DNA of 60,000 nucleotides from Vicugna vicugna (lineage: Eukaryota), in the NCBI GenBank assembly GCA_013265495.1, contig MU057724.1:684001-744000 (forward strand), read 5' to 3'. The position numbers and the translations under genes were made by a program. This document shows positions 770 through 50,273 of the stretch, piece by piece. How positions within the stretch are numbered: position 1 is the stretch's first letter; each line of letters begins with the position of its first letter. The notes below the pieces were generated by a model. That model had not been told where the DNA came from. It was given only the letters and a program-made list of their open reading frames with translations, and searched no databases.

Positions 770-827
770 AGTGCTTGCTAGTTTTAGTTAAGGAGTCCGT
801 CAGCTTCTGCAGCTTCTTGCGGTTCAT
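770..827 (-). CDS. CLXN: Calaxin (EF-hand calcium-binding domain protein 1, EFCAB1), first coding exon; the rest of the gene lies left of the window
   Basis: Reverse complement of 827-770 reads ATG AAC CGC AAG AAG CTG CAG AAG CTG ACG GAC TCC TTA ACT AAA ACT AGC AAG CAC T = MNRKKLQKLTDSLTKTSKH + 1 nt, followed by a consensus donor GTAAGT (769-764). This matches the human EFCAB1 N-terminus as I recall it (MNRKKLQKLTDTLTKNCKHF). It lies in a CpG island with RFX motifs, as expected for a motile-cilia gene. Confidence 0.95.
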
Positions 828-4229: not shown

Positions 4230-5640
4230 GCAGCCAGCCTTGTCGATTTCAGTCATTAGTGGGTGTGAGTGGGGACTCACTGTGGTCTTAATTTGCATGT
4301 TCCTATTACTAGCGAACTGAATGTCTTTTTAAAGGGTCTTTAAATGTTACTTTGTTTATTTGTTTTCTGGGGGGAGGTCAATGGGTCTACTTATTTATTT
4401 ACTTGTTTTTGATGGAGGTGCTGGGGATTGAACCTAGGACCTCGTGCATGCCAGGCATGCACTCTACCTCTGAGCTATACCTTCCCCCGAATGTCTTCTT
4501 AATATTAGGTTGTAAGTATTCTTTATGTGTTACGGATGGAATGCTGTTACCAGATACCAGTGGGTGACTTTATGCTTTTACTAGTGGCTTTTGGAAAGCA
4601 AAAGTTTTGAGTTTTGAGAAAGCTCAGTTCACCAAAATTTAATTTTATAGTTCATAGTTTGCATGTGCTGCTTAAAAATGTGTTGCCTGATCCAGAGCCA
4701 TAGAGATTTCTTTCATGTGTGTTTTACATGGTTTACGGTTCTCTCTCTTACATTTGGACCTCTGCTTCCCTGCAGTTAATTCTCGTGTACACGTGAGGAA
4801 AGGGTCGGTGCTCATTGTTTCTCACGTGGGCCTCTGGTTTGCAGGAGAGACGGTTCCTCTTCCGCGGACTTGCCCTGGCGTTTCTGTCAAGTGGCCACGT
4901 AGCGTGAGCTGCGTCTTGGGCTCCAATCTGCCCGTTGATCGCTGTGTCCATTCTCACGGAACATCACACTGCGCTCATTCCCGCAGCTTTACAGTGGCTC
5001 TTCAAATCAGGTAGCATGAATTCTTTAATGTCGTTCTTTTCCAAAGTTGTTTTGACTAATTGACATCATTTTCATTTCATGTGAATTTTAGAATCAACCT
5101 GTCAGTTTCAAAAATCCTGCCAAGGTTTGATTGGGGCTGCATCGCTCCTGTGTAGCCATCGGGGTAGAACTGAACGGGGTTGCTTTTCTGACCCGTGGAC
5201 ATGGTGTGTCTCTCCGTTTGTTAGGTCCTCATTGTGTCTCTCAGCATTGTGTTCAGGTTTTAAGTTACACGTCTGAGCATCTTTTGTTACACGTGTTCAT
5301 AAGTATTTTTGACGCTAACGTAACTGTGATGTTCGAGGTCGCAGTTGCTCTTTGATGGCACTTAAAGTGTAACTGGTATTTGCGTACTGATGCTTGACTG
5401 TCTCACCGGCTGTGCTGTCACTGGATTTAAATCACGGTGCACACTTCGCTCGTTTTCTCTTCAGTGATTCATTTGTTATCTCATGAATCGGCTCGTCTCT
5501 CTAGTTAATAAATGTGTATTTCTTTATCGCCAGCTTCTTGTGGGTCTGCCTAGGTGGTCACACGGTGGACGGGGGGTTGGGTGGGAGGAGGTGGGGCTGC
5601 TCTGTCATCCTTTCCTCATGGGCTTGTGCCTTCGTGTGAG
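4230..5640 (-). mobile_element. Old L1 (L1M-type) ORF2 fragment, interrupted by a SINE
   Basis: Antisense L1 motifs such as tgtggtcttaatttgcatgttcc and catgtgaattttagaatcaacctgtc; boundaries approximate. Confidence 0.7.
4333..4488 (-). mobile_element. tRNA-derived SINE (camelid Vic-1-like) with TSD
   Basis: ggggattgaacctaggacctcgtgcatgccaggcatgcactctacctctgagctatac is the reverse complement of a tRNA-like A/B-box head. TSD gaatgtctttttaa (4319) / gaatgtcttcttaa (4489). Confidence 0.85.
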
Positions 5641-10730: not shown

Positions 10731-11953
10731 TCTTTGTTTCCTTTCCAAACGGCCTGGTGGCTGTGTGTGCCACATGGGTGTGCCTGTGTGCACATGCTTG
10801 CACACGCGTGGGCTGTTTTTGGCAGGCGTGCATTTGCTGGCAGAACTCCAGTCCCAATTTCACTGGCTCTCCCGTCCCCAGGGACCATTTGTCCTCTGAC
10901 ACCGGCGCTTCATTTTTCACTCGCCATTTCTTATCGGCCCGCAGTCCTTGGAAAGCTATTTCCTCTGGAAGATGGATGTGAACAGTGCTTTTTGGTAAAG
11001 AGAATGTGGTTTCCACAGGCCTGAAGGCTGAGTGTTTCCAGCAGACGTGGAGACGCTGTGATTGGAGCCCCGGTCCTGCTCCGTGTCTGCTCTGCAGAGG
11101 CCTCGACTTCCTGGCCGAGGGCAGGTTCAGTTTGTGTTACCATGTGCGTGGTCAAGCAGACGTCTTCCTGCCGGAGACGTTCAAGGTGGGGACTAGGTCT
11201 GAGACGTGAACACCTGTTTGTACACTAGTGTACTTGTGAACCCTTGATGACTTTGCTTTGTCACACTTTCTATTCTGTTTTAGGCTTGACCTCGCTTCAC
11301 TGCAAGGAATCATCTTTTTTTTCAAATCATCGGAAGTTCATCCGTGTTTATAGCAAAACCTCATCAAGTCCGACTGCTCCACGTCACACATCCTAGTGCA
11401 GCTGTAATTACGTTTGAAAAGCACGTGAAGAATCATTTGCTTAAAATGGATAACACACCCAGGGCTTGGGGCGACACAGCACATTAAAGACATGTTTCTG
11501 TGTTCAGTTATTCTTACATGCAAATCAGCACGTTCACTGCAGAACAGACTCGGTTGTTCACGAACATCTTCCAGCGTCTTAACAGTTCGGATCCCTGGAT
11601 GTGCAATTCCTCGGAGGGTCTGGCAGTAAAGCACGTTAAAGTTTATTGTGACCCAGAGTTGTCCTTCACATCGTACCCCTGCCGGTCCTGGGTCCCCCCC
11701 AGTGTCCTTCCCATGCGCACGTTGGTGTGCTTGTCAGAATCTATATTAATTATTTCCTCCTTTCTCTGCTTTCTGCGACTGTGTCACTCATTCGAGAGGC
11801 CCAGCACGGCCTTCCAGACGCTGGGAGACTCCGGGTCTTCTTGGCCCCTGGCAGTGGCTCACACTTGGTGGGAGTGACTTGGTGCTTCTGTTTTTCTAGA
11901 ATAGACAATGCTAGAATTTTCTAGAATTATACAATTAATGTTAATTCCTCTAT

Positions 11954-12098
11954 GATGGTTTGGTGGCGTTCTTCCGGGAAACTAACTGGGCTGGAGATTG
12001 CCTTCTGGGGCTGCTTTTAGCTGCAAGTTGGATTTCCTCAATAGCTCAGAGGCTGTTCAGATTCCACGTGTCACAGTGGGTAAGTCGTGGAGTTTGTG
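11954..12098 (+). repeat. Direct repeat copy 1 (~145 bp), partner at 22713-22858
   Basis: gatggtttgg...gtcgtggagtttgtg; 5 substitutions + 1 indel versus the partner by manual alignment. Confidence 0.9.
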
Positions 12099-12111
12099 CT
12101 TTTCAAGGAAC

Positions 12112-12891
12112 TGGTCCACTCATCCAGGCTGCCAAGCGGGTGTGTGCAGACTGGGCCATTTCGGTCCCGGCTGCCACGCTGACACCTGCCGGATCTGTGG
12201 CAGCACCCCTCACTCCTGGCACCGGTTCGCGGACAGTTCGTGTCCTCTCTTCTCCTCTCTTTGTAGGTCTTGCTGGAGGTTTGCCAGTTTCGCTGCTCTT
12301 CCCAAAGAAAAGGCTTCTTGCCTCACGGGTTTTCTCTGTTGTTTCTGTGCTTCCGGCTCCACTGACTTCTGTCTCTTCTGCCCGTTTCCTTCCTTCTGTG
12401 CGCTTTGCGTTCACTCTTCCGGGTCCTCGAGCGGAAGCTTAGGCCGTTGACTTGGACGTTCCCCTCTCCTGACACGAGCGTTTAGCGCTACACACGCCCC
12501 ACACATCGTAGTATGCGGCGTTTTCATTTTCGTTCAGCTCGGTGGACGCTTCGTTTCTCCTGAGACTTCCTCTCTGACCCACGGGACGTTTCAAGGTGCG
12601 CTGGCTAGTTTCCAAGGCTTTGCGGAGACCTTCCCATTCCTGATTCCAGTCTGGTCCCACTGTGGGCAGCAGACGTTCTGTATGATTTTACTTCCGCTCC
12701 ACTCACCGCTTTTGTCTTCCGGCCCAGGATACGGTCTCCCTCGCTGTGCTGACTAGATCCTGCGGGTCGGTGGTGTGCTGCGTTCAGGGTCTGCTCCCCC
12801 GCTGATGCAGCCCTGTTGTTTGGTGCACACACGTGCGGGATTGCTACGTCCTCCCGGTGGCCTGACCCTCGTATCATAATGTCACAGGTCA
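12112..12891 (+). repeat. Inverted repeat, left arm (780 bp)
   Basis: Reverse complement of 19834-20613. Paired coordinates always sum to 32725 (no indels), and ORF translations across the two arms are identical. Confidence 0.95.
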
Positions 12892-15439
12892 TTTTTTTTT
12901 TTTTTAGCTGGAAGTCTGCTTTATCTGATGTTAATATAACTCTCTTATCTCTTTTAGTTAACGTTTGCATGGTATGTCTTTTTCTGTATGGTTTCTTGTT
13001 GGCAATATGTAGTTGTGTCATGATTTTCAACCCACTGGGCCAATCTTTGTCTTTTAAATGATGTATTTAGACCACTGCATTTCATGAAATTATTCATTGT
13101 TATGCCTTAAAGCTACCATTTTATTTTCCTTTTCTGTTTGTTTATTTTCTTTTCTCTGTGTCTTTTTTCATGGCTTTCTCTGGGTTAGTTGAACACTTTT
13201 TTTTGACTTCCATTTGGATTTATCTCTGTGTTTTTAAATGTATCTCTTTCTTTATAGAAGTTGTTGTTGTTTTAACCACAGGCTCCTGGTGCCAATATTT
13301 TCCACTCTGAGTAACATTTGGAGACTCCTCCTCCCTCTCTGCCCCATTTATAACCTCGCTTAAAATACAACTGTCTTAAATCTTCCCTCCACCTACTTTC
13401 AGAGCCACATCGGAAAGTGTTGCAGCTTTTGTTTCAACCACTAAGAGCAATTTAGAGAACTCAGCGGGCGAGGCGCAGCGCATCGCCTGGACCCGTGGTT
13501 TTATTCTTTCCATCGTTCTCACTTCCTGCTGCCCAAGGCTCTTCTTCTAGAGCCTTCTTTCTGCCCGGAGAACTTCGTCCAGCTCCTCGGTCAGGCGAGG
13601 TCTGTGAGCAGTAACTTCCTCTTTTCCTTCGCCTGAGGAAGTCTTGAATTCCCGTCTTCCTGGAAGGTGTCTTACGCATACAGGGGGCTGGGTTAACAGC
13701 GCGTTTCTTCCTCTGCGCAAAGAGCGCTGTGGATTCTAATTCCTGGAGGGAACTCACTCTCCGTCAGACGGTGTTTCCCGCAGAGAAAAGGTGTTCTTTC
13801 CTGCAGCTATTTTCAAGATTTTTCTCTTTGTTCTCATACTTTCGTCACGTGGCCATGATGTTTTTTGGAATGGATGTCTTTGAGTTTATCCTGTTTGGCA
13901 TTTTCTCAGCTTCTTGAATCTTTAGGATTATGTCTTTTGCCAAATTTGGAGATTTTTTAGTCATCATTTCATTGAATAGTTTTTCAGACTCGCTCTCGCC
14001 CCCCGTCCTTCCAGGGACTCTTGCCATGAATGCGAGGTTTTTCCACCTGCAGGGCCTGTGACGTCCGTTTTCTCCCCCCTCCCTGTTTTTTCTTCTCGCT
14101 GTCTTGACTGGGTGATTTCTGTCGTCCTGTTCATGGATTTTTCCTCTGTTTTCATGTTGTTGAGTCTGTGTACTGAGTTTAAAAAAATTTCAGTTATTTT
14201 ACTTTTCTGTTCTAAATTTCCTTTTGTTTCCCTTTGTATCTTCTGTTTGCTAAGACTTTTTGTTCTTTTATTTGTTTCAGGTGTGTTTATAATTACTCAC
14301 TGAAGCATGTTTCTGATGGTTGCTGTAAAATCCTTGTCATATAATTCCAGCGTGCTGGCATGGTGGTGCTGGTGTCTGTAGACTGTCTTATTTTGTATTC
14401 AGGTTGAGATGTTCCTGATTGTCAGTAGAATGAGTGATTTTCAGATGAAATTTGGACATGTTAGGTATTACATAATGAGAATCTGCAAGTTCATGAAACC
14501 TATTTTTATCTGACTTCCTCTCACATCACTCCAGCAGGGGAAAGGGGCCTCGGCCTGGTCCCTGCCAGGTGAGCTAGAAATCCAGGGCCGCCCTCTGGCC
14601 TTGGTTGGCACCTGCAGGAGGAAGGGCTTCTCATGCTGCTGGGTGGGAGTGGGGCTTCTGGCCTCCACCCTGGCTGGACGGAGAGGGGTGCCGTGTCACT
14701 GCTCCCTGCTCGGACTATGCTGTCACTGCCCGGGGTGATGAAAGTTTGACATCACTCCATGGGGAGTGGGAGGGACTCCTCATTACCCCAGGGAGGAGGG
14801 GTCTCCATGCCCCCATTGGGGATGAGTTCTCGGCCCACCCACTCCCTGGCCTTTTGCGACACACCCTGGCCGGGCGTCCGCGGCAACTCTTTGCACTTGG
14901 ATGGCCTGGGGAGCAGGTCCCCCCTTGCTCGGCCCTTGCTGGTGGGGCCGGGGCCGGGGCCGTGGTTTTCCTTGGGGGTTTGGAAGGAGCGCAGCGGGCG
15001 TTGTCTAGATGTTCCCGTGCCGTCCGGCTGCCCCTCTCCTGGTCCTGTGCCGAGACAGCAGGCTTCTCTGGGGGCTTTTCTGGCTCACGCCTGCTCGCAC
15101 TCCTGGGTGGCCGGGATCTGCAGCTCTGGGGCTGGGATGTAAGGCAAAAAGAAACCCAAGGACTTCACCCCCGTTTCCCCTTGGGTCCTGAGTTCTCCGC
15201 TGTCCGCCTTCTCCTCTCTGCCTTTCTGTTCGTGTGTAGAGACTCTTCGCTGCCTTTGTTCGTACTTAGCAGGAAGAAAACATGTCCCTTACATCTTCCC
15301 AGAAGCGCAAGTCCAGTGGAGGCAGCTTGATTTTTACAGTTTTTATTTGAAGTATTTTATAAGCATCTTACTTTTGGAAAGTTTTTAGAACTGAGTACAT
15401 TTTCATGGTTTGCATAAAATAGGAACTGTTTCACGCTCA

Positions 15440-15680
15440 TACTTCGTTTTTGTATACATTTAATATTATGGTATGTAATGCATATTGTATTACACAACGT
15501 ACAAGTCTATCTGTATCACATAGAATGCATTGTTACACTGCAGCATAGAATATGTTATATAATACATTATACATTAATTATACAGTGTATTAAAGTATTA
15601 ATTCATAGCATCTAAACGTATTGTACACAGTGTCATTGCACACACGCCACTGCACAGTTTACATTATTACGCATTATATA
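15440..15680. repeat. AT-rich low-complexity tract (degenerate TACAT/TATTG units)
   Basis: Repetitive tattgtattacac / tacattatac text. Confidence 0.5.
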
Positions 15681-15764
15681 CAGCAAACTGACTCACCAAT
15701 GAACGAGTTTTGACGCCTCTTTTTGGTGGCCTGGAGCCATGTGTCATGGAGCAGGAGAGGCTGT

Positions 15765-16095
15765 GATCGTTTGCCAGGGTGACAGTGACAATGCAGCACA
15801 GATGTCTGTCCCTGCAGCTCTGGAGGGGGCGTCCCAGAAGAAGGTGCCAACAGGGCTGGTCTCTCCTGGGCTGGGACGGCTGTCTTCTCAGTGTGTCCTC
15901 CCACGGTGTGGGTGTCTGGGTCCAAATCTCTTTTTCCTACACGGACACCGCTCATTTTGTTAGGACCCACCCAGTGACCTCATTTTACCATAATTGCCTC
16001 TTTAAGGACCCCATCTGCAGATACAGTCCCCTTCTGAGGTCCTGGGTGGGAGGACTAGGACACGACTGTTTAGGGAACACCACTCAGCTCCTAAA
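15765..16095 (-). mobile_element. MaLR LTR (MLT1-like)
   Basis: ggtccaaatctctttttcctacacggacacc...gtgacctcattttacc...aaggaccccatctgcagatacagtcc...ttctgaggt resembles the reverse complement of an MLT1 LTR. Confidence 0.8.
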
Positions 16096-16859
16096 GGGAG
16101 CGGGGCACAGACAGTGGAGGGGAGAGCCCCGGTCCTGGTCTTGACTCAGAGGCAGTGGCGGGGCCTGGGCTGCAAACAGAGGTGGTGGTGCAGGTGGGCG
16201 ATACCCCGGGGCCCCAGGAAGCTGGGCCAGCTTCACAGAGGGATGGAGGGACGGAGGGACAGAGGGACGGCTGCCAGGCTAGAGGGGCCTCTGCTCTCTC
16301 TGTTCACCTCCTGCTCCAAACAAACTGGGAATGCTTGCTTCTGGAGAAGGGCACCGCGACCTGGGGTGTCTCCTGTGTCCTCGGACAGCTCCAGGCTTCT
16401 GTGTCCATGGTGGTCAACAGTGCTCGCAAGCGAGTTTCATAATTTCCTAAAAGAAAGATGGCTTTTTTCATAGATTTTTTAAGGAAATTGATTCTGATAC
16501 TTTAATGAAAGAGAAAACAAATGATGGGGTACCTGTCAGTAGCCGTTTTTGTTAAGAACGTCCTGGAGAAGTATTCTTGGTTTTTTTATTGCTGTTTCTT
16601 ACACTTAATACAACATACACACTTAGATTTACCAACTGAATTTTCTTTGACCTCGAAACCCCATGTAAACCGAGACTCCAAGCACAAACTGCTTTTTTCC
16701 GTCTCCCACCTCAAACAAACACATTTTCTGTTGGATTCAAAGAGCCCCGTGGACTCTCCCAGCAGCAGTTGGTAGGAAAAAAATAGCCGCCCGAGAGCCT
16801 CCTTCCAGACGTGTTTAGCAAACGCGGCCTTATTTTAATCTTTCACTATGATTTATTGA

Positions 16860-17800
16860 GGCATTCAGGGTTCGTCCGGAGCCCCGGCCCAGCCGCCCCA
16901 GCGCGGGAGATGAATGTTCTCTCTGACTCCGGCTGCGCTTGGCAGTCCGCGCAGGGCCCGTTGTCCCCGCACCCCCGAGGAAATAAGAGCGCTGTGTATT
17001 CTAGGGAAGAAAAACACGGCTTTCAGGCCCTCCTCCCAGCGCGCCCTGACGGCGAGCGCGCCTCGGCGGCGGAACAGAGCGGCCCTCTGTGGGGCCGCGG
17101 CCGCAGACTGGCTGTCTGCGCGGGGGTTCCTGCCGCGGCGGGAGGGGCTGTGCGGCGCCCCGCGGGGCCCAGGGGAGGAAGGAGGCGCTTCCACCCCGCC
17201 CGGCCTGGGACGCCCGGCGTGGCCTTCGGAGGCGCGCGCTCCCCGGACGGCTCTCCGCGTCCGGGCCGAGCTCGGGCAGGGCCGGCGCCCCGGGAGGGCG
17301 GCCCCCACGGCGTCCTGCCCGCCGCCCTGCACTGGCCCCGGCTCCGCGGGCGGGGCCTCGTCACGGCCGTCCGCCCGCACCGCCCTCCCGGGCCCTCAGC
17401 CTGGTCCAGGCTGGACCCCGCGCAGGGGAGGATGCGCGCCCCGAGCACGGCGCGTGCGCCACGGCCTCCACTCGGGCCGGGCGGGGGGCGCCGCAGGGCC
17501 TCTGCAGGTGCGCCCGCGTGGGGACGGAACCTGGGCCGACGGCTGGGGGTGCCCGGAGGAGAGGCTGCAGTGTGTGCCGCCGCGGCTGCTCGGCTGGGCC
17601 CCCTGCATGGTGAGGCGTTGGGGACCTGCGCTCATAGCCCCCGGCTCCTCGGCATCGTCGGGCCCCTCCGCTGACCCGGGAGAGTCCGCTTGATGCGCGG
17701 GGAAGCCTCCCGGGATGGGCATTTCTCAGAAGCTCCAGCTGCGGTTCCCGGAAGCACTGATTCTGGTGGATCCCGACGTTCCGAGTGGCCCTGAGGAACA
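16860..17800. promoter_or_regulatory. Orphan CpG island
   Basis: About 0.9 kb of extremely GC/CpG-dense, non-repeat-like sequence; no recognisable coding exon. Confidence 0.8.
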
Positions 17801-18599
17801 GGCACTGGGACGGAAAGAGGCACAGGAGTCGTCGTCCAGCCCGAGTGTCCTCCCTTTGTGATGAGGCACCGAGCCCCGTGGAGTGTGAACCCCGGTCCCG
17901 GGACAGCCCTGTCTGGACCTGCACGAGGGGCCAGGCACTTTCATGGCTCAGTCAGCAAGGCCCCCGGGAATCTTTATCCTGCTTCCCCGAGGGGCCTCAA
18001 TTAAAAAATTCTCTGTGGAGTCTAGCACCTTGAGTACCACAGACATCTCTGTTAAGCTGAGTTCTCCTAATCTGGTGAGGTGAGGAGGCACCTGTCACCT
18101 GTGCTGGATGTTTCTCTCACCTGTGCAGTGGGAGGAGTCTGTGTCTCTGGTGGGAGCCTCTTGTTACGAGGTGTGAATAATACAAGATGTTCACTAGTCA
18201 CATTTTAGTGAAAAAACAAGTAATTTATCTTGCCCTCGGACACCCAGGCGGCAGTGAAGGAGGCAGCAAAGGCAGCCCCAACCAGGTGCATGGCCTGTGG
18301 TGCTGGCTGGTAGCGGGGGACCCCAGGCCCAGGGCATCTCAGCTCAAGTATTCCACTTATTTATTCACATTCTCCTTGTTTATTTGCATATTGTTTATGT
18401 GACTTGTTTGGGGGAGCTGTACTGAACTATTAATGAATTAGAATTATTTATTTAGGATAGTTTGGTTGAATTATTGACCTATTTCTGTGATGCCTCTCAG
18501 CTTCACTCAGAAAAATTGGGAATTCACTCTACAACTGGGAAAATATTGAGTCTTTACTGCTCAGAAATGCTGTGACCCTTGTTGGAAAAACAGCAAACT

Positions 18600-20613
18600 A
18601 AACCAAACAATCAAAAAGCGAAACCAAAACCCTGTCCCCATCTTAACAAAAGGACAGTGGACGGGAGGGAGGGTGAGTGGCGGCTGTGAGCTGGGGACAG
18701 TGTCAGGCCCCCCCCCCACCCTGAGTCGCATGCAAGGAGGGAAGTGTCTCTGTTGTCCCTGGTGTTGGCCGCAGAGGCCGGGCAGTCACAGCCGCACTTC
18801 TGCTCTTGGGAGGATGAGTTAGACTCCTTTTCCTCCCATGGGGTGCATGAGGCTGAAATCGGTGGGCATCGAACAGCTAACACACGGAAGGAGACTCTGA
18901 AGTGTGGGGACTGCAGGTCGGGCGGGGACCCGGCACCTGTGAGCAGAGCGGAGTAGGTGCCCTGGTTTCTCTCCTTCTCGTGCCACAGACTGGGGGCAGA
19001 ATAATCCGGAATCTGGAGGTGCAGACGAGGACCAGCGAGGGGAGCTTGGCAGGACAGAGAGCTTTTCGACAGTAACCACTGATTCTGCCCAAACCCACCC
19101 ACGCCAGCAGACACCGAGAGGGGAGCCCGGCTAGCGGGGCCAGAGTGACTACCTAAAGCTCCAGCACTGAGTCCTCGGAGCCCCTGGCGGACCAGGGACA
19201 GGCCAGGAAGGAGGAGGAAGAGTGAAAGTGTGGAAAATCCAGTGTTTTCCTTCTCTTATTGACTTGTGTAAGTTATGCTGGCAGTTTAAGCAAAAGTTGT
19301 AAAACTTCTCGATACGGCTTTAAGTGAGAAGCAGAAATACTTAAGACAACAATACTCTTAGTGACGGAGGGTAAAGGTATAGAAAAGGGACCCAGCCTTT
19401 CTACACTTCGCTCGAATGTGAACTGGCTGCCCCAGGAGACTGTGGGATTCCTGTGCACCCGTCACTGGGAGGGCGTTCAAAAGGGAGCGCTGCGTTGGAG
19501 TGCTAAAGATGGGTTTAAGTGAGCACCGGAGGGAAGGACAGGGAAGCAAGAGAAGGGAAACCAGAATAAACAGAAACGAATAAAGTGGCCATCTTGAGCT
19601 TTAACAACTCAGTGATTACTTAAACTTACATGATCTCAGTGCATGAGCTAAAAGAGATTGGCAGTGATTTTTTTAAACGACCTAATCATATACTGCCTGT
19701 AAGAAACTCATTTCAAATCAGTGATATAGGTAGACAGAAGGAAAAGAGATGTGTCATGCGAACATTAATCAAAAGAAAGGAGCTGTCAAACCTATATTCA
19801 TAGCAGCTAATGTAGACTTCAAAGCAAAAAAAGTGACCTGTGACATTATGATACGAGGGTCAGGCCACCGGGAGGACGTAGCAATCCCGCACGTGTGTGC
19901 ACCAAACAACAGGGCTGCATCAGCGGGGGAGCAGACCCTGAACGCAGCACACCACCGACCCGCAGGATCTAGTCAGCACAGCGAGGGAGACCGTATCCTG
20001 GGCCGGAAGACAAAAGCGGTGAGTGGAGCGGAAGTAAAATCATACAGAACGTCTGCTGCCCACAGTGGGACCAGACTGGAATCAGGAATGGGAAGGTCTC
20101 CGCAAAGCCTTGGAAACTAGCCAGCGCACCTTGAAACGTCCCGTGGGTCAGAGAGGAAGTCTCAGGAGAAACGAAGCGTCCACCGAGCTGAACGAAAATG
20201 AAAACGCCGCATACTACGATGTGTGGGGCGTGTGTAGCGCTAAACGCTCGTGTCAGGAGAGGGGAACGTCCAAGTCAACGGCCTAAGCTTCCGCTCGAGG
20301 ACCCGGAAGAGTGAACGCAAAGCGCACAGAAGGAAGGAAACGGGCAGAAGAGACAGAAGTCAGTGGAGCCGGAAGCACAGAAACAACAGAGAAAACCCGT
20401 GAGGCAAGAAGCCTTTTCTTTGGGAAGAGCAGCGAAACTGGCAAACCTCCAGCAAGACCTACAAAGAGAGGAGAAGAGAGGACACGAACTGTCCGCGAAC
20501 CGGTGCCAGGAGTGAGGGGTGCTGCCACAGATCCGGCAGGTGTCAGCGTGGCAGCCGGGACCGAAATGGCCCAGTCTGCACACACCCGCTTGGCAGCCTG
20601 GATGAGTGGACCA
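18600..20613 (+). mobile_element. Old L1 (element B, 5' part through the ORF2 endonuclease region), sense
   Basis: ORF 19749..20120 gives HANINQKKGAV...IAANVDFK...CAPNNRA, a decayed L1 endonuclease; left boundary approximate. Confidence 0.8.
19834..20613 (-). repeat. Inverted repeat, right arm (780 bp)
   Basis: Partner of 12112-12891; e.g. ORFs 12439..12660(-) and 20065..20286(+) give the same 73-aa translation. Confidence 0.95.
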
Positions 20614-21051
20614 CCAGCCTTGTGGGGAGAGGGCTCGCCACCCACGTTGGCCAGTGAGATAAGGAGGGAGCTTGCTGGTGGGGTGGGGGAATCGCGTCTG
20701 GAGGCAGGAGTTTTCCTCCAAGAGAAGGACCAGGTTGGGGGTGGGGGTGGGGTGGGACAGGACGCACCAGCCCTCGTGTCCCTCTGGATCTGACGGCTGA
20801 GGCTGAATGTGGTCACAGACATACTGAGGAACATCAAGAGGAAGGGACCCAGATCTCAGTATATCCCTGCAGTGTCTGTGCACCTCGCCTCCGAGGTCCT
20901 CCTCATCTGGGGACTGACTCAGGGGTTCTGTGAACTTGCAGACAAAAGCGTCCTTAACGACCCAGAGAACGCCACTGACGCTTGTTGCCAAGGTCCTGGC
21001 CAAGTTTACTCCATGAAGCTGAGTCTGAAGGATTTGCTCCAGGGCAGAATA

Positions 21052-22858
21052 CCATTTTTTAATTAAATGAAAATCTTTGCTTTGAAATAAGTGGAGATTC
21101 ACAGGCAGTGATGAGAAACAGCGTGGAGGATGGGGGCCCTGTCGTCAGTTCCTCCAGTGCTACATCTCGCAACACTGTAGCACAACATCGCCACCAGGAC
21201 GCAGAGACCGTCCAGGCACGGAGCGTCTCTGTCACCACAGACGTCCCTCCTGTTGCCTTTCTCTGCTCGGCCCACGTTCCTGGCCCTGCTTCCGTCCTCA
21301 AGTCCTGGCAAGCGTGAATCTGTTTTCCATCAGTGCAGTTTTGTCATCTCAAGAAGCTGCCCACCGTGTGCGAGGGTAGATGCTCCCTGCGCGTCCCTGT
21401 CTGCTGTCAGCATGGGAGCAGTTTCTCTGCGTCCTTGCCAGCGTTCGGCACTGTCACTGGCCTTCATTTTAACCATCTGACAGGTGCAGAGGGGCGCGTC
21501 TCCTTGCGGTTTTAATCTGCGTTCCCCTGATGAGGGTAACGTTAGCACATCTTTTCGTGCCCTTGTGTTCCGCCTGCGCTCCCTCCTCGGTGAGACTTCT
21601 GCTCCTGTCCTTCCCCTGTCCTCTAATAAAAGCGTTTTTGTTTTTTCACTGTGGAGTTTTGAGAGTTACAAAATTGTTTTAGCAAGTGTATTTTTTTTTT
21701 TTGCTAGTGTCTTTGTTTTGCCTTTCTATGTACGTTTAAAAATAACCTGGTCTGTATCTACAGAAAAATGTTCCTGGAACTTTGATCGGAAGCATGAGAA
21801 ACACGTACACCGATCTGGGGCAATTCGGGACCTTTGAAGCTTGAGCCCCTGATGTGTGAACCAGGCGCGTCTCTGCTTTTTAGATCTTAGGTTTCTCTTG
21901 TAAGAGCCTTCTCGGTTTGGCACAAAGGGCGTGCTTTGAAAGTCGTTCTCTCTTTGTAATTGTGCTGTCCGTGTGGTCATTGTCAGTATGAGGAAATGCA
22001 GCTGACTTTGCATGTCCATCTTGTGTCCTGCAAACTGGTTGGATTCGTGTATGCCCAAGGGTTTTTTGGTAGATTGTTTGAGATTTTACGAGCAGACAAC
22101 CCTGTCATCTGTACGTAGGGACATCTTTAATTTTTTCCTTTCCAACCTGGGGCTTTTTCTTCTCCATCCTGGCCTTATTTCAGGGAGGAGAGCTCCCCGA
22201 GCCCTCAGGTGGCGAGAGTGGCCCCTGCCCTGGCCTCTGACTTACGGGGACTCTGCCTTTTCCCATCAGGACCCTGATGGCTCTAGGATCTTTGCAGATG
22301 CGCCTGATGAAATTGAAGGAGCTTCCCTGTGCCCCTAGAGTTCAGAGTTTTTATCACGGTTGGATGTCAAATTTTATCAGATCCTTCTTTTTGCATCAGT
22401 TAATACGGCCACGTGTTAGATTCCTTCGTTAGATTGTTTATATGGTGTATAATCTAGATCTGTTTTCAAGTATTGAACCAGCCTTGCCTCCACAGTGGAT
22501 TGTGGTGTATAATTCATTTTATGTAATTTTGATTTTATTTATGACAATTTTGTTAAGGATTTTGAGTCTGTATCCTTGAAGGATGTCAGTCTGTTCTGTT
22601 CTTTTGTTGCACGATTTTGTCTGGTTTTGATTCCAGTGAATGAGTTGGAAAGGACATTTTCCTCTTCTCTTTTCTCTGGTAGACTTTGTACAATTAGTGT
22701 TAATTCTTCTGCGATGGTTTGGTAGCGTTCTTCCGGGAAACTGACTGGGCCTGGAGATTGCCTTCTGGGGCTGCTTTTAGTTGCAAGTTGGATTTCCTTA
22801 ATAGCTCAGAGGCTATTCAGATTCCACGTGTCACAGTGGGTAAGTCGTGGAGTTTGTG
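21052..22858 (-). mobile_element. L1MC-like 3' part (element B continuation, now inverted)
   Basis: tttgaaataagtggagattcacaggcagtgatgagaaac...catctcgcaacactgtagcacaacatcgccaccagg resembles the antisense L1MC 3' end; antisense ORF2 continues to 22858. Confidence 0.8.
22713..22858 (+). repeat. Direct repeat copy 2 (~146 bp)
   Basis: Aligns to 11954-12098; homology ends abruptly at 22858. Confidence 0.9.
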
Positions 22859-24975: not shown

Positions 24976-27318
24976 AACTCTAAAAAATTTCTTTTAAATT
25001 AACCTAGAGGATGCCAATAGTTCCATCTCATGAACAGAGAAGGTGACCAGTGTGATATTGTGCAGCTTGTGTGAGGTCCGATGTGAACAGTGTTTAGGCC
25101 CGTGTGGCCCTTGTGTTAACCTGCGCACCCGCGCGGGCCTCGTTTGGAGGGTCCTCTCCCAGGACCCCGGCTTCCTTGGGTTGGCTACCTGCTGTGACGA
25201 ATACTGGTCCCTCATTCTGTCCCAAGAACTGTCGTTGCCGCCATAGGGGCTTTCGTTGAAAAGGCCCACCCTGGACCCGTAGCTCCGACGCGATGCCCCA
25301 GTGGCCTGTGCCCAGATGCCACCCCAGCCCGGGGCCAGGCCTCTGTCCCGGCGGCCGCCCCTCCCCTGCCCCACCGAGGGGTCTGGACGGCCGGCGGCTC
25401 TCACCTGCCTTTGTTCTGCCTGTTTCTCTGCTGCAACACAGAGGGACGTGTGAGTGGTTCTCACCAGCACGGAGGCCACGCCGTGCCATCCAGCCAGCTG
25501 GATCTCTTCCCTTTCTCCTCAAGAATGTGCTGAAACTCACGGGGGTCGGACTGGAGAGGAGTGGCTACTTGCCCTTTTCCAGACCTTGGGGACTGACTAC
25601 CAGCTGACAGCGTCCAGCCCTCCTCACACTGCGGAGGTCACCCTGCGGAGGTCACCCTGCAGAGGAGGGAGGCCGAGGGCGTGGGGTGGGCGGGGGCCCG
25701 GCTGGTGCCTGCGCCACATTCACCCGGCCACCCTGGCGGGGACAGGGGACCTACACCAGCGTCCTTGGCTGCAAAGGGCTGGGGTCTGTAACCCCTGCTC
25801 TCAGACCCATGATCGCCAGGGGTACCCAGAACACGCATCCCACATGGGGCCGGGAGCAGAGTCAGTAACCGACCATGTTGCCCTGTCTTACCCGGATGCC
25901 ACCCGCTCACCTGCACAGGCAGCGCCTCAGGAAGCGACATTTCATTCCAGAGATAATACAACCTCAAGTTCTGAGTGTTTCAAACTTTCCAGCTGCCGGA
26001 CCCTCTTTACTGCCAAACGAAATCATTACCCAAGGAAAAGTATGAAATTTAAAGACGATGGCCAGTAAAAATGACCATTGGTGTGTCACTGTTCAGTGGT
26101 TTTGAAAGATGCTATCGTGTTAACAGTGTTTGAACACGTCTTTGTACATACAGCCAAGTCCGTCTTCCTGGAGGGTCTAAAAGGCCCCTGAGCGTTTCTC
26201 CCTGGTGTGCTTCGTGATGCGACACGGTGGCTGCATTCGGCACTTCTGTCAGCTTACAGGTGATGCTTTTAAAGTTATCATAAATTCTTAGAATTATTTC
26301 TTCTCTTATACAGATGTCCAAAGCTTAGCAAAATAATGCGTATTTGTTGTCTGCGTGTGATTTCATATGAAAGTACCAGAAAGGAGACACCTGTGTGTGG
26401 TTGTAAAGCTGTCACGTAGCCCAAACGTCAAACTGACTTGGCAGGTGTCATAACTTTCTGGATTGCTCAGCTCTGGCTGTGTCTGTATGGCTGTCTGACC
26501 CTCTGTCACTCTCATTACAACGTCCGGAAGCTTTAGTAAGCTCTTTATGAACCGACAATTTCTTTCTTAAGGTCTGTGCGGCAAATTTGAACAGTCCTAC
26601 AAACTCATTTTAACAAGGTTTGGACTTTGTATACATTCTCAATAATATTAAGCCATGAAATCTTTGCACGTAAAAAATTTTGCACATTAAAAAATTTTTT
26701 TTAATACTTCCCAGTGTGCTCTGCTGTAGGTGGACCCCAGGCAGGGACCCTCAGCTATTTTGTAAACTTTCATTGTACAAATGCCTTAAGGACTAGGTCT
26801 TTTTCCTCCCATCTTTGGATATATTTTGCCATCTTTTCTTGCCATCGACTTGGCTGGAAGGTCAGTGTCCACTGTGTCATTTCACATCTTGTCTCTGTGG
26901 TTCTCTGCAGGTAGCAAACCAGCTCATTTAACACAGCTGATTTCATAGCCAGCCAACCAGTAGCATCACGTCTGTATTCACAGTTTCTCCTAAACATCTT
27001 GTTTTCAAACAGCAATTTATTACTCACTTTAAAAGAAATTATTTTGTACCCCAAATTTATAATAAATTTCGGAAATACAATATAGGCAAAATGCAAAGCT
27101 GACAGTAAGCACTGAAAGGGCCTTTCATTCGACCTGGACTGACTTAAGAAGGTTGTGTGCTGGCTGGTTCTAACACAGACCACCGGTGTGTGAGAACATG
27201 CCTGCGGAAGGTGTCACACCCAGGAGCAGCAGTGTGAGGGCGCAGGCGCTCAGTGCCTGGGCGTCTTCCTGGTGGGCAAGTGGTCGGTGGGGCTGAGCTG
27301 GGCAGGGGGTGAGGGCAC

Positions 27319-27671
27319 ACCAGGGTCCCCAGGTCAGTCCACCGAGGTCCCCAGGTCAGTTCACCAAGGTCCCCAGGTCAGTCCACTGAGGTCCCCAGGT
27401 CAGTCCACCAGGTTCCCCAGGTTAGTCCAGCAGGGTCCTAGGTCAGTCCGCCAGGGTCCCAGGTCAGTCCACCCAGCTCCCCAGGTCAGTCCACCAAGTT
27501 CCTAGGTCAGCCCAGCAGGGTCCCAGGCCAGTCCACTGAGGTCCCCAGGTCAGTCCACCAGGGTCCCCAGGTCAGTCTAGCAGGGTCCCCAGGTCAGTCC
27601 AGCAGGGTCCCAGGTCAGTCCACCAAGGTCCCCAAGTTAATCCACCAAGGTCCCAGGTCAGTCCACCAGGG
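27319..27671. repeat. Minisatellite, ~16 units of 21-22 bp (consensus ACCAGGGTCCCCAGGTCAGTCC)
   Basis: Units counted directly from the sequence. Confidence 0.95.
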
Positions 27672-28879: not shown

Positions 28880-29020
28880 GGGGAAGGTCGAGCTCGGTGG
28901 TAGAGCACATGCTTAACACGCACGAGGTCCTGGGTTCAATCCCCAGCACTGCCTCTAAAATAAATAAGTAAATAACCTTAATTACCACGCCCCCAACCAA
29001 GAAAAACCTTAAAAAAAGAA
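28880..29020 (+). mobile_element. tRNA-derived SINE (Vic-1-like)
   Basis: A-box-like agctcggtggtagagc, B-box ggttcaatccc, A-rich tail. Confidence 0.85.
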
Positions 29021-35544: not shown

Positions 35545-35572
35545 NNNNNNNNNNNNNNNNNNNNNNNNNNNN
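35545..35572. other. Assembly gap (28 N) after a poly-C run
   Basis: N run immediately preceded by C19 (35526-35544). Confidence 0.99.
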
Positions 35573-39044: not shown

Positions 39045-39398
39045 CGGTGGCGGGCTGAGTGTCTGCGTCCCCGCCGCTCCCACACTGCACGTCGACTGGG
39101 GTCTAGTCCCTGATGGGGTGGTGCTTGGAGGCGGGGTCTGTGGGAGGGACGAGGCCCGGGGGTGGAGACTCGCTGGGATGGGCGCCCTGCTGCGGGCCGG
39201 GGGCCGGGGGCCGCCCCTCCCCTGCGGGTGGGACCCAGAGGGACGCGGGCGTCTGGGCGAGGCCTCCCTGGGAGAGGTCATGCCGGCACCTGGTTTTGGC
39301 CCCGGCCTCCAGAGCTGTGAGACATAAGCACGCACACACCCGCGGACATTAACCGCCCAGCTGGGCGCTTCGTCTCCCCGGCCGATCTCACTAAGACG
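39045..39398 (+). mobile_element. MaLR LTR (MLT1A-like), GC-shifted
   Basis: gtggtgcttggaggcggggtctgtgggagg...gccggcacctggttttggccccggcctccagagctgtgagac...ctaagac. Confidence 0.7.
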
Positions 39399-39399
39399 C

Positions 39400-41000
39400 A
39401 GACGGTATAACCAGTGACAAACCAGAGACAGAACCACAGTGTCAGGCCTGAGCCTGAGAACAGGGCTCAGGTAATGGGTCTAAATGTGCAAAAGGCAGGA
39501 ACTGCAGAGGAGATCACAGAGCACGACCAGACCCTGCGCTGCAGACAGGACACCTACGTCAGCGTGACGACGCAGGCAGGCCGGAGGCAGAGTGACTGTG
39601 AAGACACATCGCGCAAACACTGTCAGAAAGAAACGAGGCTGCGTTAGCATCCGACGTCGTGTGAGCGTCAGATTCCAGGGTGCCGGTACAGGTGAGTCAG
39701 ACTTCAGAACAAAGCAGGTCCCCGAGGGGGAGACGGGCGTTGCGTGGTGGCGGCGAGCCGGCCGCTCAGGACGCCCTGTCGGCTCTGCGTGTGTGCGGTG
39801 GGCAGCAGGGGCCAGGATGGGCCGGCCCCCTGTGGGAGCTGAGGGCAGCAGGCGGACCCACAGGTGTGACTGCAAATGGCCCATTCTCAGCATCCGACAG
39901 ACCGACTAGACAGACAGCAGAAGAGTTTAAAGTCGGCCTCAGGCCTCAGCCGTGGTGAACGTTGATGGAACCCTCATCCAGCAGCAGCAGGACGCCCACA
40001 CCTTGTCAAGCTCAAGGGACGTTTTCCCACACAGACCACAGTCTGGTGGGGGCGAGGCCTGGGGGGCGAAGAACAGGCACGGCCCGAGCGTGGCTGAAAC
40101 GGACCGGAGGGGGTCAGTGACAGAAGGGCAACAGGGAAACGGCCGAATAGCACGCTCCCCTGTGACCCACAGGTCTCAGGAGAAGTCCCGAAGGAAATGA
40201 AAACACACGTCAAGCTGAGGGGAACTGAAGTGCGACGTGGCAGAACGCGTGGGATCCAGCCAGGGCAGCGGCGAGCAGGGAATTCACAGCACTAGTACTT
40301 ACACTAGAAAGTGCCCAGGTTAACGGTCCGAGACCCGTCCCAGTCCGCCCGGAGAAGAAGGGCCGAAGTCAGAGCCAGGAGAAGGAGGGCCGTCGTGGGG
40401 GCCTGAGCAGGAACCCAGGCGTCTGAGACAGAAAAACAGTGAAGTGAGTTCAGCGGGAATCTGGCTTCTTGAAAATATCCACAAATTCAGGACATCTCTA
40501 GCAAGACTGACAAAGGGCAAAACCGAGACAGAAACTGCGGATGCTGCTGTGCCTTCCTCGGGCTGAAACGGGGTGTTGCCGCAGATCCGTGGTCCTCACA
40601 GGGGAACCGGTGCCGACACACACACACACAGAGAGACACACAGACACACAGACACACAGAGACACACACACAGAGACACACACAGAGACACACAGACACA
40701 CAGACACGCACAGAGACACACACACAGACACACACACAGACACACACACACCTTCCGGGAAACGGACCAACTCCTTCAAAAGCGCAGACTCCGCGGACTG
40801 GGAGGGGACACTCAGAATGGCCCCGTGACTGTCAGTGAGGTTCAGTTGGTAATTAAATGTCTACCCCCCAGAATGAATCTCCAGGCCCACATGGTTTCAC
40901 CTGAGAATTCTACCAAAAAGTTTTACCAAGAGTACAATTAACACCAGTTCTTCACATTCTCTCCCTAAAAAGCATAGAAGGAACACTCCCCAGTTCATTT
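39400..41000 (+). mobile_element. Heavily diverged, GC-shifted L1 ORF2 (sense)
   Basis: ctggcttcttgaaaatatccacaaattc...ctctagcaagactgac; ccaggcccacatggtttcacctgagaattctaccaa; gaaggaacactccccagttcatt. Confidence 0.7.
40616..40751. repeat. Compound (CA)n/(CAGA) microsatellite
   Basis: acacacacagagagacacacagacacac... for ~135 bp. Confidence 0.95.
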
Positions 41001-47311: not shown

Positions 47312-48031
47312 NNNNNNNNNNNNNNNNNNNNNNNNNNNNNNNNNNNNNNNNNNNNNNNNNNNNNNNNNNNNNNNNNNNNNNNNNNNNNNNNNNNNNNNNN
47401 NNNNNNNNNNNNNNNNNNNNNNNNNNNNNNNNNNNNNNNNNNNNNNNNNNNNNNNNNNNNNNNNNNNNNNNNNNNNNNNNNNNNNNNNNNNNNNNNNNNN
47501 NNNNNNNNNNNNNNNNNNNNNNNNNNNNNNNNNNNNNNNNNNNNNNNNNNNNNNNNNNNNNNNNNNNNNNNNNNNNNNNNNNNNNNNNNNNNNNNNNNNN
47601 NNNNNNNNNNNNNNNNNNNNNNNNNNNNNNNNNNNNNNNNNNNNNNNNNNNNNNNNNNNNNNNNNNNNNNNNNNNNNNNNNNNNNNNNNNNNNNNNNNNN
47701 NNNNNNNNNNNNNNNNNNNNNNNNNNNNNNNNNNNNNNNNNNNNNNNNNNNNNNNNNNNNNNNNNNNNNNNNNNNNNNNNNNNNNNNNNNNNNNNNNNNN
47801 NNNNNNNNNNNNNNNNNNNNNNNNNNNNNNNNNNNNNNNNNNNNNNNNNNNNNNNNNNNNNNNNNNNNNNNNNNNNNNNNNNNNNNNNNNNNNNNNNNNN
47901 NNNNNNNNNNNNNNNNNNNNNNNNNNNNNNNNNNNNNNNNNNNNNNNNNNNNNNNNNNNNNNNNNNNNNNNNNNNNNNNNNNNNNNNNNNNNNNNNNNNN
48001 NNNNNNNNNNNNNNNNNNNNNNNNNNNNNNN
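47312..48031. other. Assembly gap (720 N)
   Basis: N run with G-rich flanks. Confidence 0.99.
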
Positions 48032-49624
48032 NGGGCTGACGGGGTGAGGTGGGGAGACACGCAGGCCTTCCCCCTGACTCCGTACAGATGCTGCCTTGGC
48101 CGTAAGGCCCAGTGGGGCCAAAGGGCATTCTGTTCTTCCAGGTTATTGATCTATTTTCAAAGCAAAGGGCTTGGGCGACTAGGACAGTACTCACTTTAAA
48201 TGACCCGTTTGGGACTTCTTTGTGTGATTTTCCAAAATACCAGAGGGAAGCACTGAGAACATTCCGGAGAACACGAGCAGAGGAGTGATGTGCGGGCCGG
48301 CCTGGGAAGGGCCGGGATAAACCCCGCACGTCAGGTGCAGTGGGTGCTGGGCTGGGGCCGGGAGTGGGACAGAATCAGCCCGGGTTGGGCTGGAGCGGGT
48401 GAGCAGCCCCAGCCCAGCTCCCACGTCCCACCTGGGCCGGCCGGGCTGCCCCTGGCTGGGGGGTTCACTCTGGGGAGGTGGGCACCCCTGGCCAGAGTGG
48501 GCCCATCCGACTGGCGCTGGTTGGGATGGGCTGGGGCGGGACTTTGGGGCAGCACAGCCCTGAGGGTGCTGCCCGAGTCCCCTTGGAGCCGCTCCAGGGC
48601 CTGGCTCACGCCTGAAAGTCGGGGCTGAGTCGGTCTGAACGCAGACCCCAGCATTTGGACAGGCTTGTAATTTGCAGTGTGCAGGTTCCATCTCTGCACG
48701 GACTTTGGGGCAGAAGAAGGCCGGTGTTTTGGGAGAGAGGCACCTTCCAGAGGCAGAACCGCCCAGAGGCGTCGGGGTCCAGGGCTGGCGCCCTTCCCTC
48801 TGCGCCCTGGGGCTGTACCTGGTTGCTGTAGGGTCACTGAACAGCCTACCAGGAGGGGAGAGGAAGACAGGGGAGGACCCTCGGAAAGCTGTCCTGGGGT
48901 CAGGAGGAGGAGGGGCTGCGGGAAGGGTGGGATGGGGGAGTCGAGCATCTTCCAAAGACCTGTGTTCTGTCCTCCACGCACTGTGTTGGACCCCACAGAG
49001 CCCTTGCGTCTGTGTTCGCCAGCCTGGACGCCGCGGACACAGTGGGGAGAGCGGGGCCCGCCGCCAGGCCTCAGTGAGGAAGGGCTGTCTGACGGGCGCT
49101 GCAGGCAGGAGGTCAGTTTCCAAGGAAGAAAGGGACGTGGGTGGCGGCAGAGTCTGGGGTCTAGGATGCCAGGAATGGCAGTGACACGGGGATGCCAGGG
49201 GGAGTTCAGGACAGCCCGGCGGGCGGAGCCCAGGGGGAGGAGGGCTGCGTGTGGGCAGGCCGGGAGCCTCTCCTGGGACTGTCCTGGGCCCTGCCTTCGA
49301 CTCAAGCTTGCGTGTTAAGGAAAATGCAGGCGGTGTCCTCCACGGCAGCGGCCCCAGGCCACCGTCCTCTCCACCCTTTCCAAGCCTGCCCGCATCTGGT
49401 CTGTATTTGCCCCTTGGACCCACAGTGCTGGTGAGCTAGTTCAGTGTGGCGGAGGCGCTTCCATCCGTTTTCTTTTCTTTCCGTGCGTGAGAAGGAGTCT
49501 ACGTCTGGGAGGGAGGAGTGCTTGATCCCAGGCAGCTTTGCATGGCTTTCTCCAGCTAATTACAGTCGGCTTTGAGGAATATTGAAGAAGGATGGAGAAA
49601 GGCAGAAGAGCAAATGAAGCCTTA

Positions 49625-50273
49625 TTTTTTTAATTGAGCTATGGCTGGTTTACAGCACTGTGCTGCTTTCTGGTGCACACAGCACAGTGGTTCAGTTGTG
49701 CATGTAGTCTTTTCCATCACAGGCTGTTACAAGGTATTGAATACAGTTCCCTGTGCTCTGCAGTAGGACCTTGCTGTTTATCTATTTTCTATACAGTAGT
49801 TTGTATCTAATCCCAAACTCCTAATTTATCCCTCCCCACCTCCTTTCCCCACTGATAACCATCAGTTTGTTTTTTATGTCTGTGAATCTGTTTCTGTTTC
49901 ATAAATAAGTTCATTTGTGTGATTTGTTTAGATTCCACACAGGTGATATCATCATATGAGATGTGTTTTTCTCTGTCTGACTTACTTCACTTAGTATGAC
50001 AATCTCCAGGTCCATCTATGCTGCTGCAAATGGCGGTATGGTTTCATTTTTTATGGCTGAGTAGTATTCCATTGTATAAATATACCACAGCTTTATCCAG
50101 TCATCCTTCAATGAGCATTTAGGTTGTTTCCATGTCTTGGCTGTTGTAAATAGTGCTGCTGTGAACACTGGGGTGCATGTGTCTTTTCAAATTAGAGCTT
50201 CCTCTGGATATGTGCCCAGGAGTGGGATTGCTGGATCACAGGGTAAGTCTATTTTCAGTTTTTTAAGGAATCT
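49625..50273 (-). mobile_element. 5'-truncated L1 3' end, same family as 2213-2877
   Basis: Collinear with the 2213-2877 element (cccaaactcc.aatttatccctccc; cttacttcacttagtatg; gtcttggctgttgtaaatagtgctgctgtg). Confidence 0.9.

Follow-up and report, generated by a model that had tools for sequence, protein, structure and literature searches.

A perfectly matched 780-bp inverted repeat within two old L1 elements of Vicugna vicugna, with a diverged sister piece that suggests gene conversion between its arms

Gene conversion between inverted repeats is a well known mechanism, and the current study adds a probable further instance with an unusually tidy built-in control: a 780-bp inverted repeat within two old L1 elements in a 60,000-nucleotide stretch of the Vicugna vicugna genome (GenBank assembly GCA_013265495.1, contig MU057724.1, positions 684,001 to 744,000 of the forward strand; hereafter the window, from whose first letter positions are counted). 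In the palindromes of primate X chromosomes, GC-biased conversion between the arms has been described, with an equilibrium GC content of 60.9% and intermediate values in sequence that has departed from the arms (Jackson et al. 2021, PMC8981503). The present locus is similar in its inverted arms of more than 99% identity, in arms that are GC-richer than their flanks and in the intermediate GC content of its departed sequence. In contrast, the primate palindromes are large, sex-chromosomal and mostly gene-bearing (10 of 12), with a GC excess of about 5 points (PMC8981503), whereas this locus, known from one assembly and probably autosomal, comprises 780 bases of dead, frame-broken L1 ORF2 with a GC excess of more than 20 points.

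The locus also resembles human inversions mediated by non-allelic homologous recombination, in which a short, near-identical inverted pair stands a few kb apart, in mobile-element DNA or as a homogenised core within older homology. Examples are HsInv0341 (L1PA3, 6.2 kb), HsInv0347 (THE1C, 1.6-kb repeats, 7.1 kb) and HsInv0209 (782 bp at 99.9% identity within 94% duplications) (Aguado et al. 2014, PMC3961182; Giner-Delgado et al. 2019, PMC6748972), of which the latter two are close geometric matches. Both orientations of the human inversions have been genotyped, whereas the present locus is known from one assembled orientation; its host L1s, moreover, are only about 65% alike and the identity of its arms was created secondarily. 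L1PA3 and THE1C, the repeat elements of the human inversions, belong to younger families.

Recurrent inversion at FLNA-EMD was reportedly described by Caceres et al. in 2007. This locus is entered as HsInv0389 (PMC3961182), while the flip/flop region of Saccharomyces carries inverted repeats that are continually homogenised (PMC9731477). Both share with the present locus homogenised inverted repeats around a spacer, but their arms measure 11.3 kb and 4 kb, respectively, genes lie in the spacer or arms and the orientation toggles across species, in contrast to the single orientation assembled here. Neighbouring transposon copies within 10 kb of each other are also known to exchange sequence and lose divergence, conversion between Alu copies being raised below that distance (Fawcett and Innan 2019, PMC6598467; PMC8232201 served as general background only). 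Those cases concern Alu, long terminal repeat and Helitron copies with partial or mosaic tracts, unlike the old L1 described here, in which the block of 780 bases is complete and sharply bounded and a piece since released serves as a control inside the locus. Our search, at the level of titles and opening lines of abstracts, returned no literature on this locus and no matching old-L1 case, although the supplements of the inversion papers, which lay outside that search, may hold closer ones.

The repeat is formed by two arms:

12112..12891, minus strand: left arm, L1 ORF2 residues 93-429, 57.4% GC, 50 CpG with an observed/expected (o/e) ratio of 0.79
19834..20613, plus strand: right arm, identical to the left arm (780/780), with the L1 broken at 20613 and no word in common at the junction

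An apparently perfect 780-bp inverted repeat had been proposed from the letters of the DNA alone (the sequence-only reading), and exact alignment of the arms in the assembled sequence confirmed it: when 19834-20613 is read as its reverse complement, 780 of 780 bases agree with 12112-12891, ungapped and without mismatch, and extension of the exact match ends at the same four limits. The only other exact inverted 25-mer pair in the window is an AT-rich self-palindrome at 2307, so the identity of the arms is well above chance, which is ruled out as its source. At 780 bp and 100% the arms fall within the range of more than 90% identity and at least about 650 bp taken from human inversion-mediating repeats (PMC6748972), and they exceed the 99% identity that marks inverted arms in concerted evolution. 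No intact reading frame is present in the arms, for which reason a coding role was rejected, and a metagenome pattern scan returned no matches.

Both L1s were aligned to a whale L1 ORF2 protein (P0036) by a frameshift-aware method, a representative search that yielded 21 short fragments having served only as a bridge to the full-length ORF2p. The two elements stand back to back, with their 5' ends towards the spacer, and continue beyond the arms on the spacer side as follows:

12892..13463, minus strand: left inner flank, in old and diverged L1, with its first 400 bases at 29-34% GC
19260..19833, plus strand: right inner flank, in L1 sharing 65% identity with the left one, with its last 300 bases at 35-38% GC

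That the arms lie in two separate old insertions, as the sequence-only reading held, is supported by these flanks, which align in register with 344 matches in 606 columns (65% of the 531 ungapped columns), a longest exact run of 9 and a score of 139, where 100 shuffles reached 45 at most. Identity falls from 100% at once at the inner boundary, where a run of A is found on both sides. The far 5' ends of the two L1s, when compared, scored 39 against a shuffle maximum of 37, and the protein identities of the inner flanks to ORF2p (44% versus 50%) do not separate which element originally owned the arm and hence do not reveal any past flip of the spacer. Two young insertions were rejected, given the 31% identity of the arm to ORF2p and its many frameshifts. 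Searches of the PDB returned nothing in three of six cases; among the others, one frame of the arm gave a weak match to the L1 endonuclease (E=0.023), and the 3' piece of the right L1 matched ORF2p (E=1.7e-4 to 6.1e-4).

The left L1 runs unbroken on the minus strand from ORF2 residue 29 to 491 (13032 to 11930). On the plus strand the right L1 can be followed from residue 34 (19681) across the arm as far as 20613, where it halts; with residue 438 it picks up again at position 22848 of the minus strand and extends from there to at least 21699. The ORF2 register holds throughout both copies, in the right one even over the flip. The sequence-only reading, although correct as to the arms and their limits, had missed this structural break in the right L1 at the outer boundary, and with it a second, direct-orientation duplicate that we refer to as the released piece:

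11927..12098, minus strand: left copy of the released piece, ORF2 residues about 435-491, where the left L1 terminates
12099..12111, minus strand: 13 left-only L1 bases, ORF2 residues about 430-434, lost from the right copy at the inversion break
20614..22858, no strand assigned: putative 2.2-kb inversion, with the ORF2 register on the plus strand up to 20613 and then residue 438 on the minus strand at 22848
21699..22685, minus strand: 3' continuation of the right L1, single-copy ORF2 reverse transcriptase region, 38, 31 and 34% GC in its first three 100-base bins and 29-64% in later ones
22686..22858, minus strand: right copy of the released piece, differing from its left counterpart at 11 of 173 columns (93.6% identity) and today lying in direct orientation to it
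39400..41000, plus strand: third old L1, without a partner, same ORF2 region, 47-70% GC, used as control and outgroup

By the rearrangement at 20614-22858 the right L1 was severed precisely where the arm has its outer limit. No other inversion is visible in the sequence, and this one lies outside the arms rather than in the spacer. Its junctions at 20613 and 22858 have no word in common with the alternative path, which would fit an end-joined break better than a graph mis-join, for which k-mer overlap would be needed. Three short repeated words beside the end of the left L1 at 11927 may reflect a templated repair insertion. The two copies of the released piece, which include one identical run of 43 bases, were polarised by eye against 40790-40975 of the third L1, an outgroup that is distant at about 62% likeness; seven substitutions and one deletion were assigned to the left copy and two changes to the right, with one difference left unassigned. 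Since each copy has derived changes of its own, these are two real copies that evolve independently. Taken together, the continuous ORF2 register and the 93.6% duplicate indicate that the common tract once measured about 965 bases (780 + 13 + 172), spanning ORF2 residues about 93-491.

Beyond this tract, the left L1-like sequence presumably reaches about 15315, while 21060-21650 on the minus strand bears a resemblance to an L1 3' end, which we take it to be; if so, the right L1 would once have been near-complete and is now split by the inversion. Two known routes to inverted L1 sequence were considered. In a twin-primed (5'-inverted) L1, a single insertion carries its inverted 5' piece immediately upstream of its 3' piece and joined to it; this was rejected by geometry, as the 3' piece begins at 22858 next to unique DNA and the 5' piece lies 2.2 kb off past its far end. 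Staggered-break inverted duplication was rejected as a sole cause because homologous L1 stands in register to either side of the inner junction and the neighbouring duplicate is of greater age. The third L1, whose ORF2 fragment can also be delimited as 39300-40850, is itself broken by a CA-rich microsatellite at about 40615-40750 and has no partner in the window.

The arms and the released piece differ markedly in apparent age, with 0 of 780 positions differing in the former and 11 of 173 in the latter (Fisher p=5.4e-9), and with 95% bounds on divergence of at most 0.38% and of 3.2-11.1%, respectively. Given correctly assembled arms, the duplication is older than the divergence of its arms implies. 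At the camel mutation rate of 2.5e-8 per 5-year generation (PMC8605555), a rough hand calculation places the arms below about 0.4 million years and the released piece at about 3-11 million years, although the rate at this locus may be higher. Copied once and then left alone, the arm and the released piece would be equally diverged; the part that has kept its inverted register must therefore have been homogenised at least once more at a later time. The earlier proposal of homogenisation by gene conversion is thereby indirectly supported, as it is by a step in GC content at the arm boundary, while the argument from GC content itself meets a counter-example within the window.

This step is abrupt, with 100-base bins immediately on the spacer side of the arms at 29, 34, 31 and 32% GC on the left and 35, 35 and 38% on the right, and with the best change point, left and right, only 20 bases away from the inner boundary (58% versus 34% and 36%). 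The window contains 10 GC steps of at least 0.29 and 20 of at least 0.24, so a coincidence within 20 bases would have a post hoc probability of about 0.7-1.4%. The third L1 is without a comparable step (51-63% GC over the matching part), and the released piece, at 46% GC, is intermediate. Relative to whale ORF2p, the arm translation goes from 32 to 99 G/A/R/P residues and from 110 to 38 F/Y/M/I/N/K residues over 261 columns, while G/A/R/P counts go from 6 to 4 and 9 to 9 in the inner flanks and from 36 to 40 in the single-copy 3' part. Identity to ORF2p is 31% (81/261) for the arm, and 44% (21/48), 50% (25/50), 40-44% and 45% (83/185) for the other pieces; over residues 250-430 the arm is 30% identical, with G/A/R/P going from 19 to 64, and GC at third codon positions (GC3) is 54% for the whole arm. 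Most 1-kb bins of the window lie at 42-67% GC.

We consider it rather probable that the locus arose by a homology-led copy, followed by a blunt inversion and then by repeated, GC-biased intrachromosomal conversion from arm to arm. A break in one L1 would have been repaired by invasion of the other at an A-rich homologous point, corresponding to the present inner boundary, and about 965 bases would have been copied in a one-sided manner. The far end may then have been sealed at 11927 without homology, by end-joining, which would have truncated the left L1. An inversion of 2.2 kb with blunt ends, presumably later, would have taken the right copy's outer 173 bases out of inverted register, leaving 780 bases in register, 6.9 kb apart, to go on correcting each other by GC-biased conversion. 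Under this scheme the arms would have stayed identical and reached a GC content of 57%, with the two copies of the released piece meanwhile drifting apart to 93.6% identity, and the structure is probably a self-maintaining neutral repeat.

Several observations weigh against this scheme. The assembly has gaps, with two N runs of 28 and 721 bases in the window, and a collapse of near-identical arms could also yield exact identity. There is no gradient of identity at the inner boundary, and the two inner GC steps have the arm side in common and are not independent. Bias towards GC affects the whole region and not only the arms, with 7 of 9 polarised changes in the released piece running from A/T to G/C. 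The third L1 over residues 250-430 is also 30% identical to ORF2p (52/173), with a GC3 of 60% and G/A/R/P going from 22 to 50, and its GC3 drops to 39% past residue 430; residues 250-430 are, in addition, somewhat less conserved than those beyond among intact ORF2 proteins. Since this element is equally GC-shifted without a partner, high GC in this region needs no partner and is not diagnostic, and only the position of the inner GC step, rather than high GC itself, is informative with regard to the arms.

It is unlikely that both arms are real but only roughly 97-99.9% alike, their exact identity stemming from an assembler consensus placed twice and conversion being less recent or less frequent than proposed. 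The gaps would fit such a collapse, as would the lack of any difference despite 50 fast-mutating CpGs per arm; yet the assembly separated the 93.6% duplicate in spite of its 43-base identical run, and the arms would already have to be far closer than the released piece, so that homogenisation is needed anyway. Real converted arms would also be expected to show 0 differences in 780 bases if, as in primate palindromes, arms differ at about 1 in 2200 (PMC8981503). A wholesale mis-assembly, in which one arm was pasted over the diverged sequence of the other L1 and no genuine near-identical inverted repeat exists, appears very improbable: although an A run stands at both inner boundaries of a gapped assembly, the inner flanks hold no exact run above 9 and the outer junction no common word, which leaves no overlap for a mis-join, and the 93.6% duplicate shows real copying at the locus.

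Two one-off events, namely an old 965-base copy and a single recent 780-base tract (possibly along with a single spacer inversion), with GC raised by an allelic recombination hot spot, would seem distinctly unlikely. Such a history is consistent with the abrupt inner boundary, with a third L1 that is GC-rich without a partner, and with mammalian conversion tracts of usually a few hundred bases and rarely above 1 kb (PMC3961182), one of which could just cover an arm. A single tract, however, must hit both limits exactly, and a hot spot would be expected to fade gradually, whereas the GC change point is no more than 20 bases off the boundary and the two elements have 29-38% GC right next to the common tract.

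The surroundings of the repeat include a gene at one end of the window and a CpG island in the spacer:

771..827, minus strand: first coding exon of EFCAB1/calaxin, first 19 residues, E=1.2e-4, 17/19 matching 7rro_I3
16861..17700, no strand assigned: spacer CpG island, 77% GC, CpG o/e 0.88

The position of the EFCAB1 exon places the repeat 11-22 kb upstream of this cilia gene, whose location we presume from synteny to be autosomal. A head-to-head promoter upstream of EFCAB1 at 940-1260 consists of three near-copies of one unit, each with a 12-base palindromic motif (954, 1025 and 1096), which we take to be an RFX X-box, followed by a CCAAT box (980, 1052 and 1122). A possible first exon on the plus strand ends at a splice donor near 1258; were a transcript from this donor to run through both arms, it would form a 780-bp RNA duplex.

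The CpG island within the spacer corresponds to one already recognised in the sequence-only reading, which had further suggested that the spacer may be a polymorphic inversion. The arms could seed such an inversion, but that it is polymorphic today is fairly doubtful. As the spacer starts and ends with L1 5' sequence, a flip would keep the same architecture and be unreadable from one haplotype. In humans, 24 of 45 inversions arose between repeats of more than 90% identity and of 654 bp to 24.2 kb, and most recur (PMC6748972), while 23 of 32 recurrent inversions (72%) have repeats of at least 10 kb, length driving recurrence (bioRxiv 10.1101/2021.12.20.472354); by comparison, the present 780-base pair is at the short end of inversion-mediating repeats.

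Other features of the window are of a more ordinary kind. Copies of a tRNA-derived short interspersed element (SINE), 76-81% alike, lie at 4391-4487, 28880-28975 and 54976-55070, in the first of which ARAGORN calls a tRNA-Ala (4413-4484) that is probably a false gene call. L1 3'-end-like copies at 2335-2877 and 49705-50270, 79.6% identical and in direct orientation, are ordinary younger insertions, AT-rich relative to the old L1s. A minisatellite with units of roughly 19-20 bases, about 85% alike, occupies 27318-27671, and the two gaps, at 35545-35572 (28 N) and 47312-48032 (721 N), each adjoin C- or G-rich low-complexity sequence.

In its most far-reaching form, which is to be regarded as unlikely, the interpretation would be that one repair event made, out of two ancient L1 fossils diverged by 35%, an inverted repeat that is devoid of genes and maintains itself. 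Its arms would have been homogenised over millions of years and have come near the GC equilibrium of palindrome arms, and its 6.9-kb spacer, with the CpG island that lies upstream of EFCAB1, would still toggle in living animals. If this were true, the released piece would act as an internal clock and would allow a direct test of the part that orientation and register play in continued conversion. More generally, the locus, if real, would be a warning that the divergence and GC content of L1 can be reset locally. It would also mean that a repeat of dead L1 shorter than a kilobase, devoid of genes, probably autosomal and without evident function under selection, can keep itself identical and GC-rich, and that a single site carrying its own control, with one part in register and one part flipped out, may allow the rate of conversion, its GC bias and the effect of orientation to be measured.

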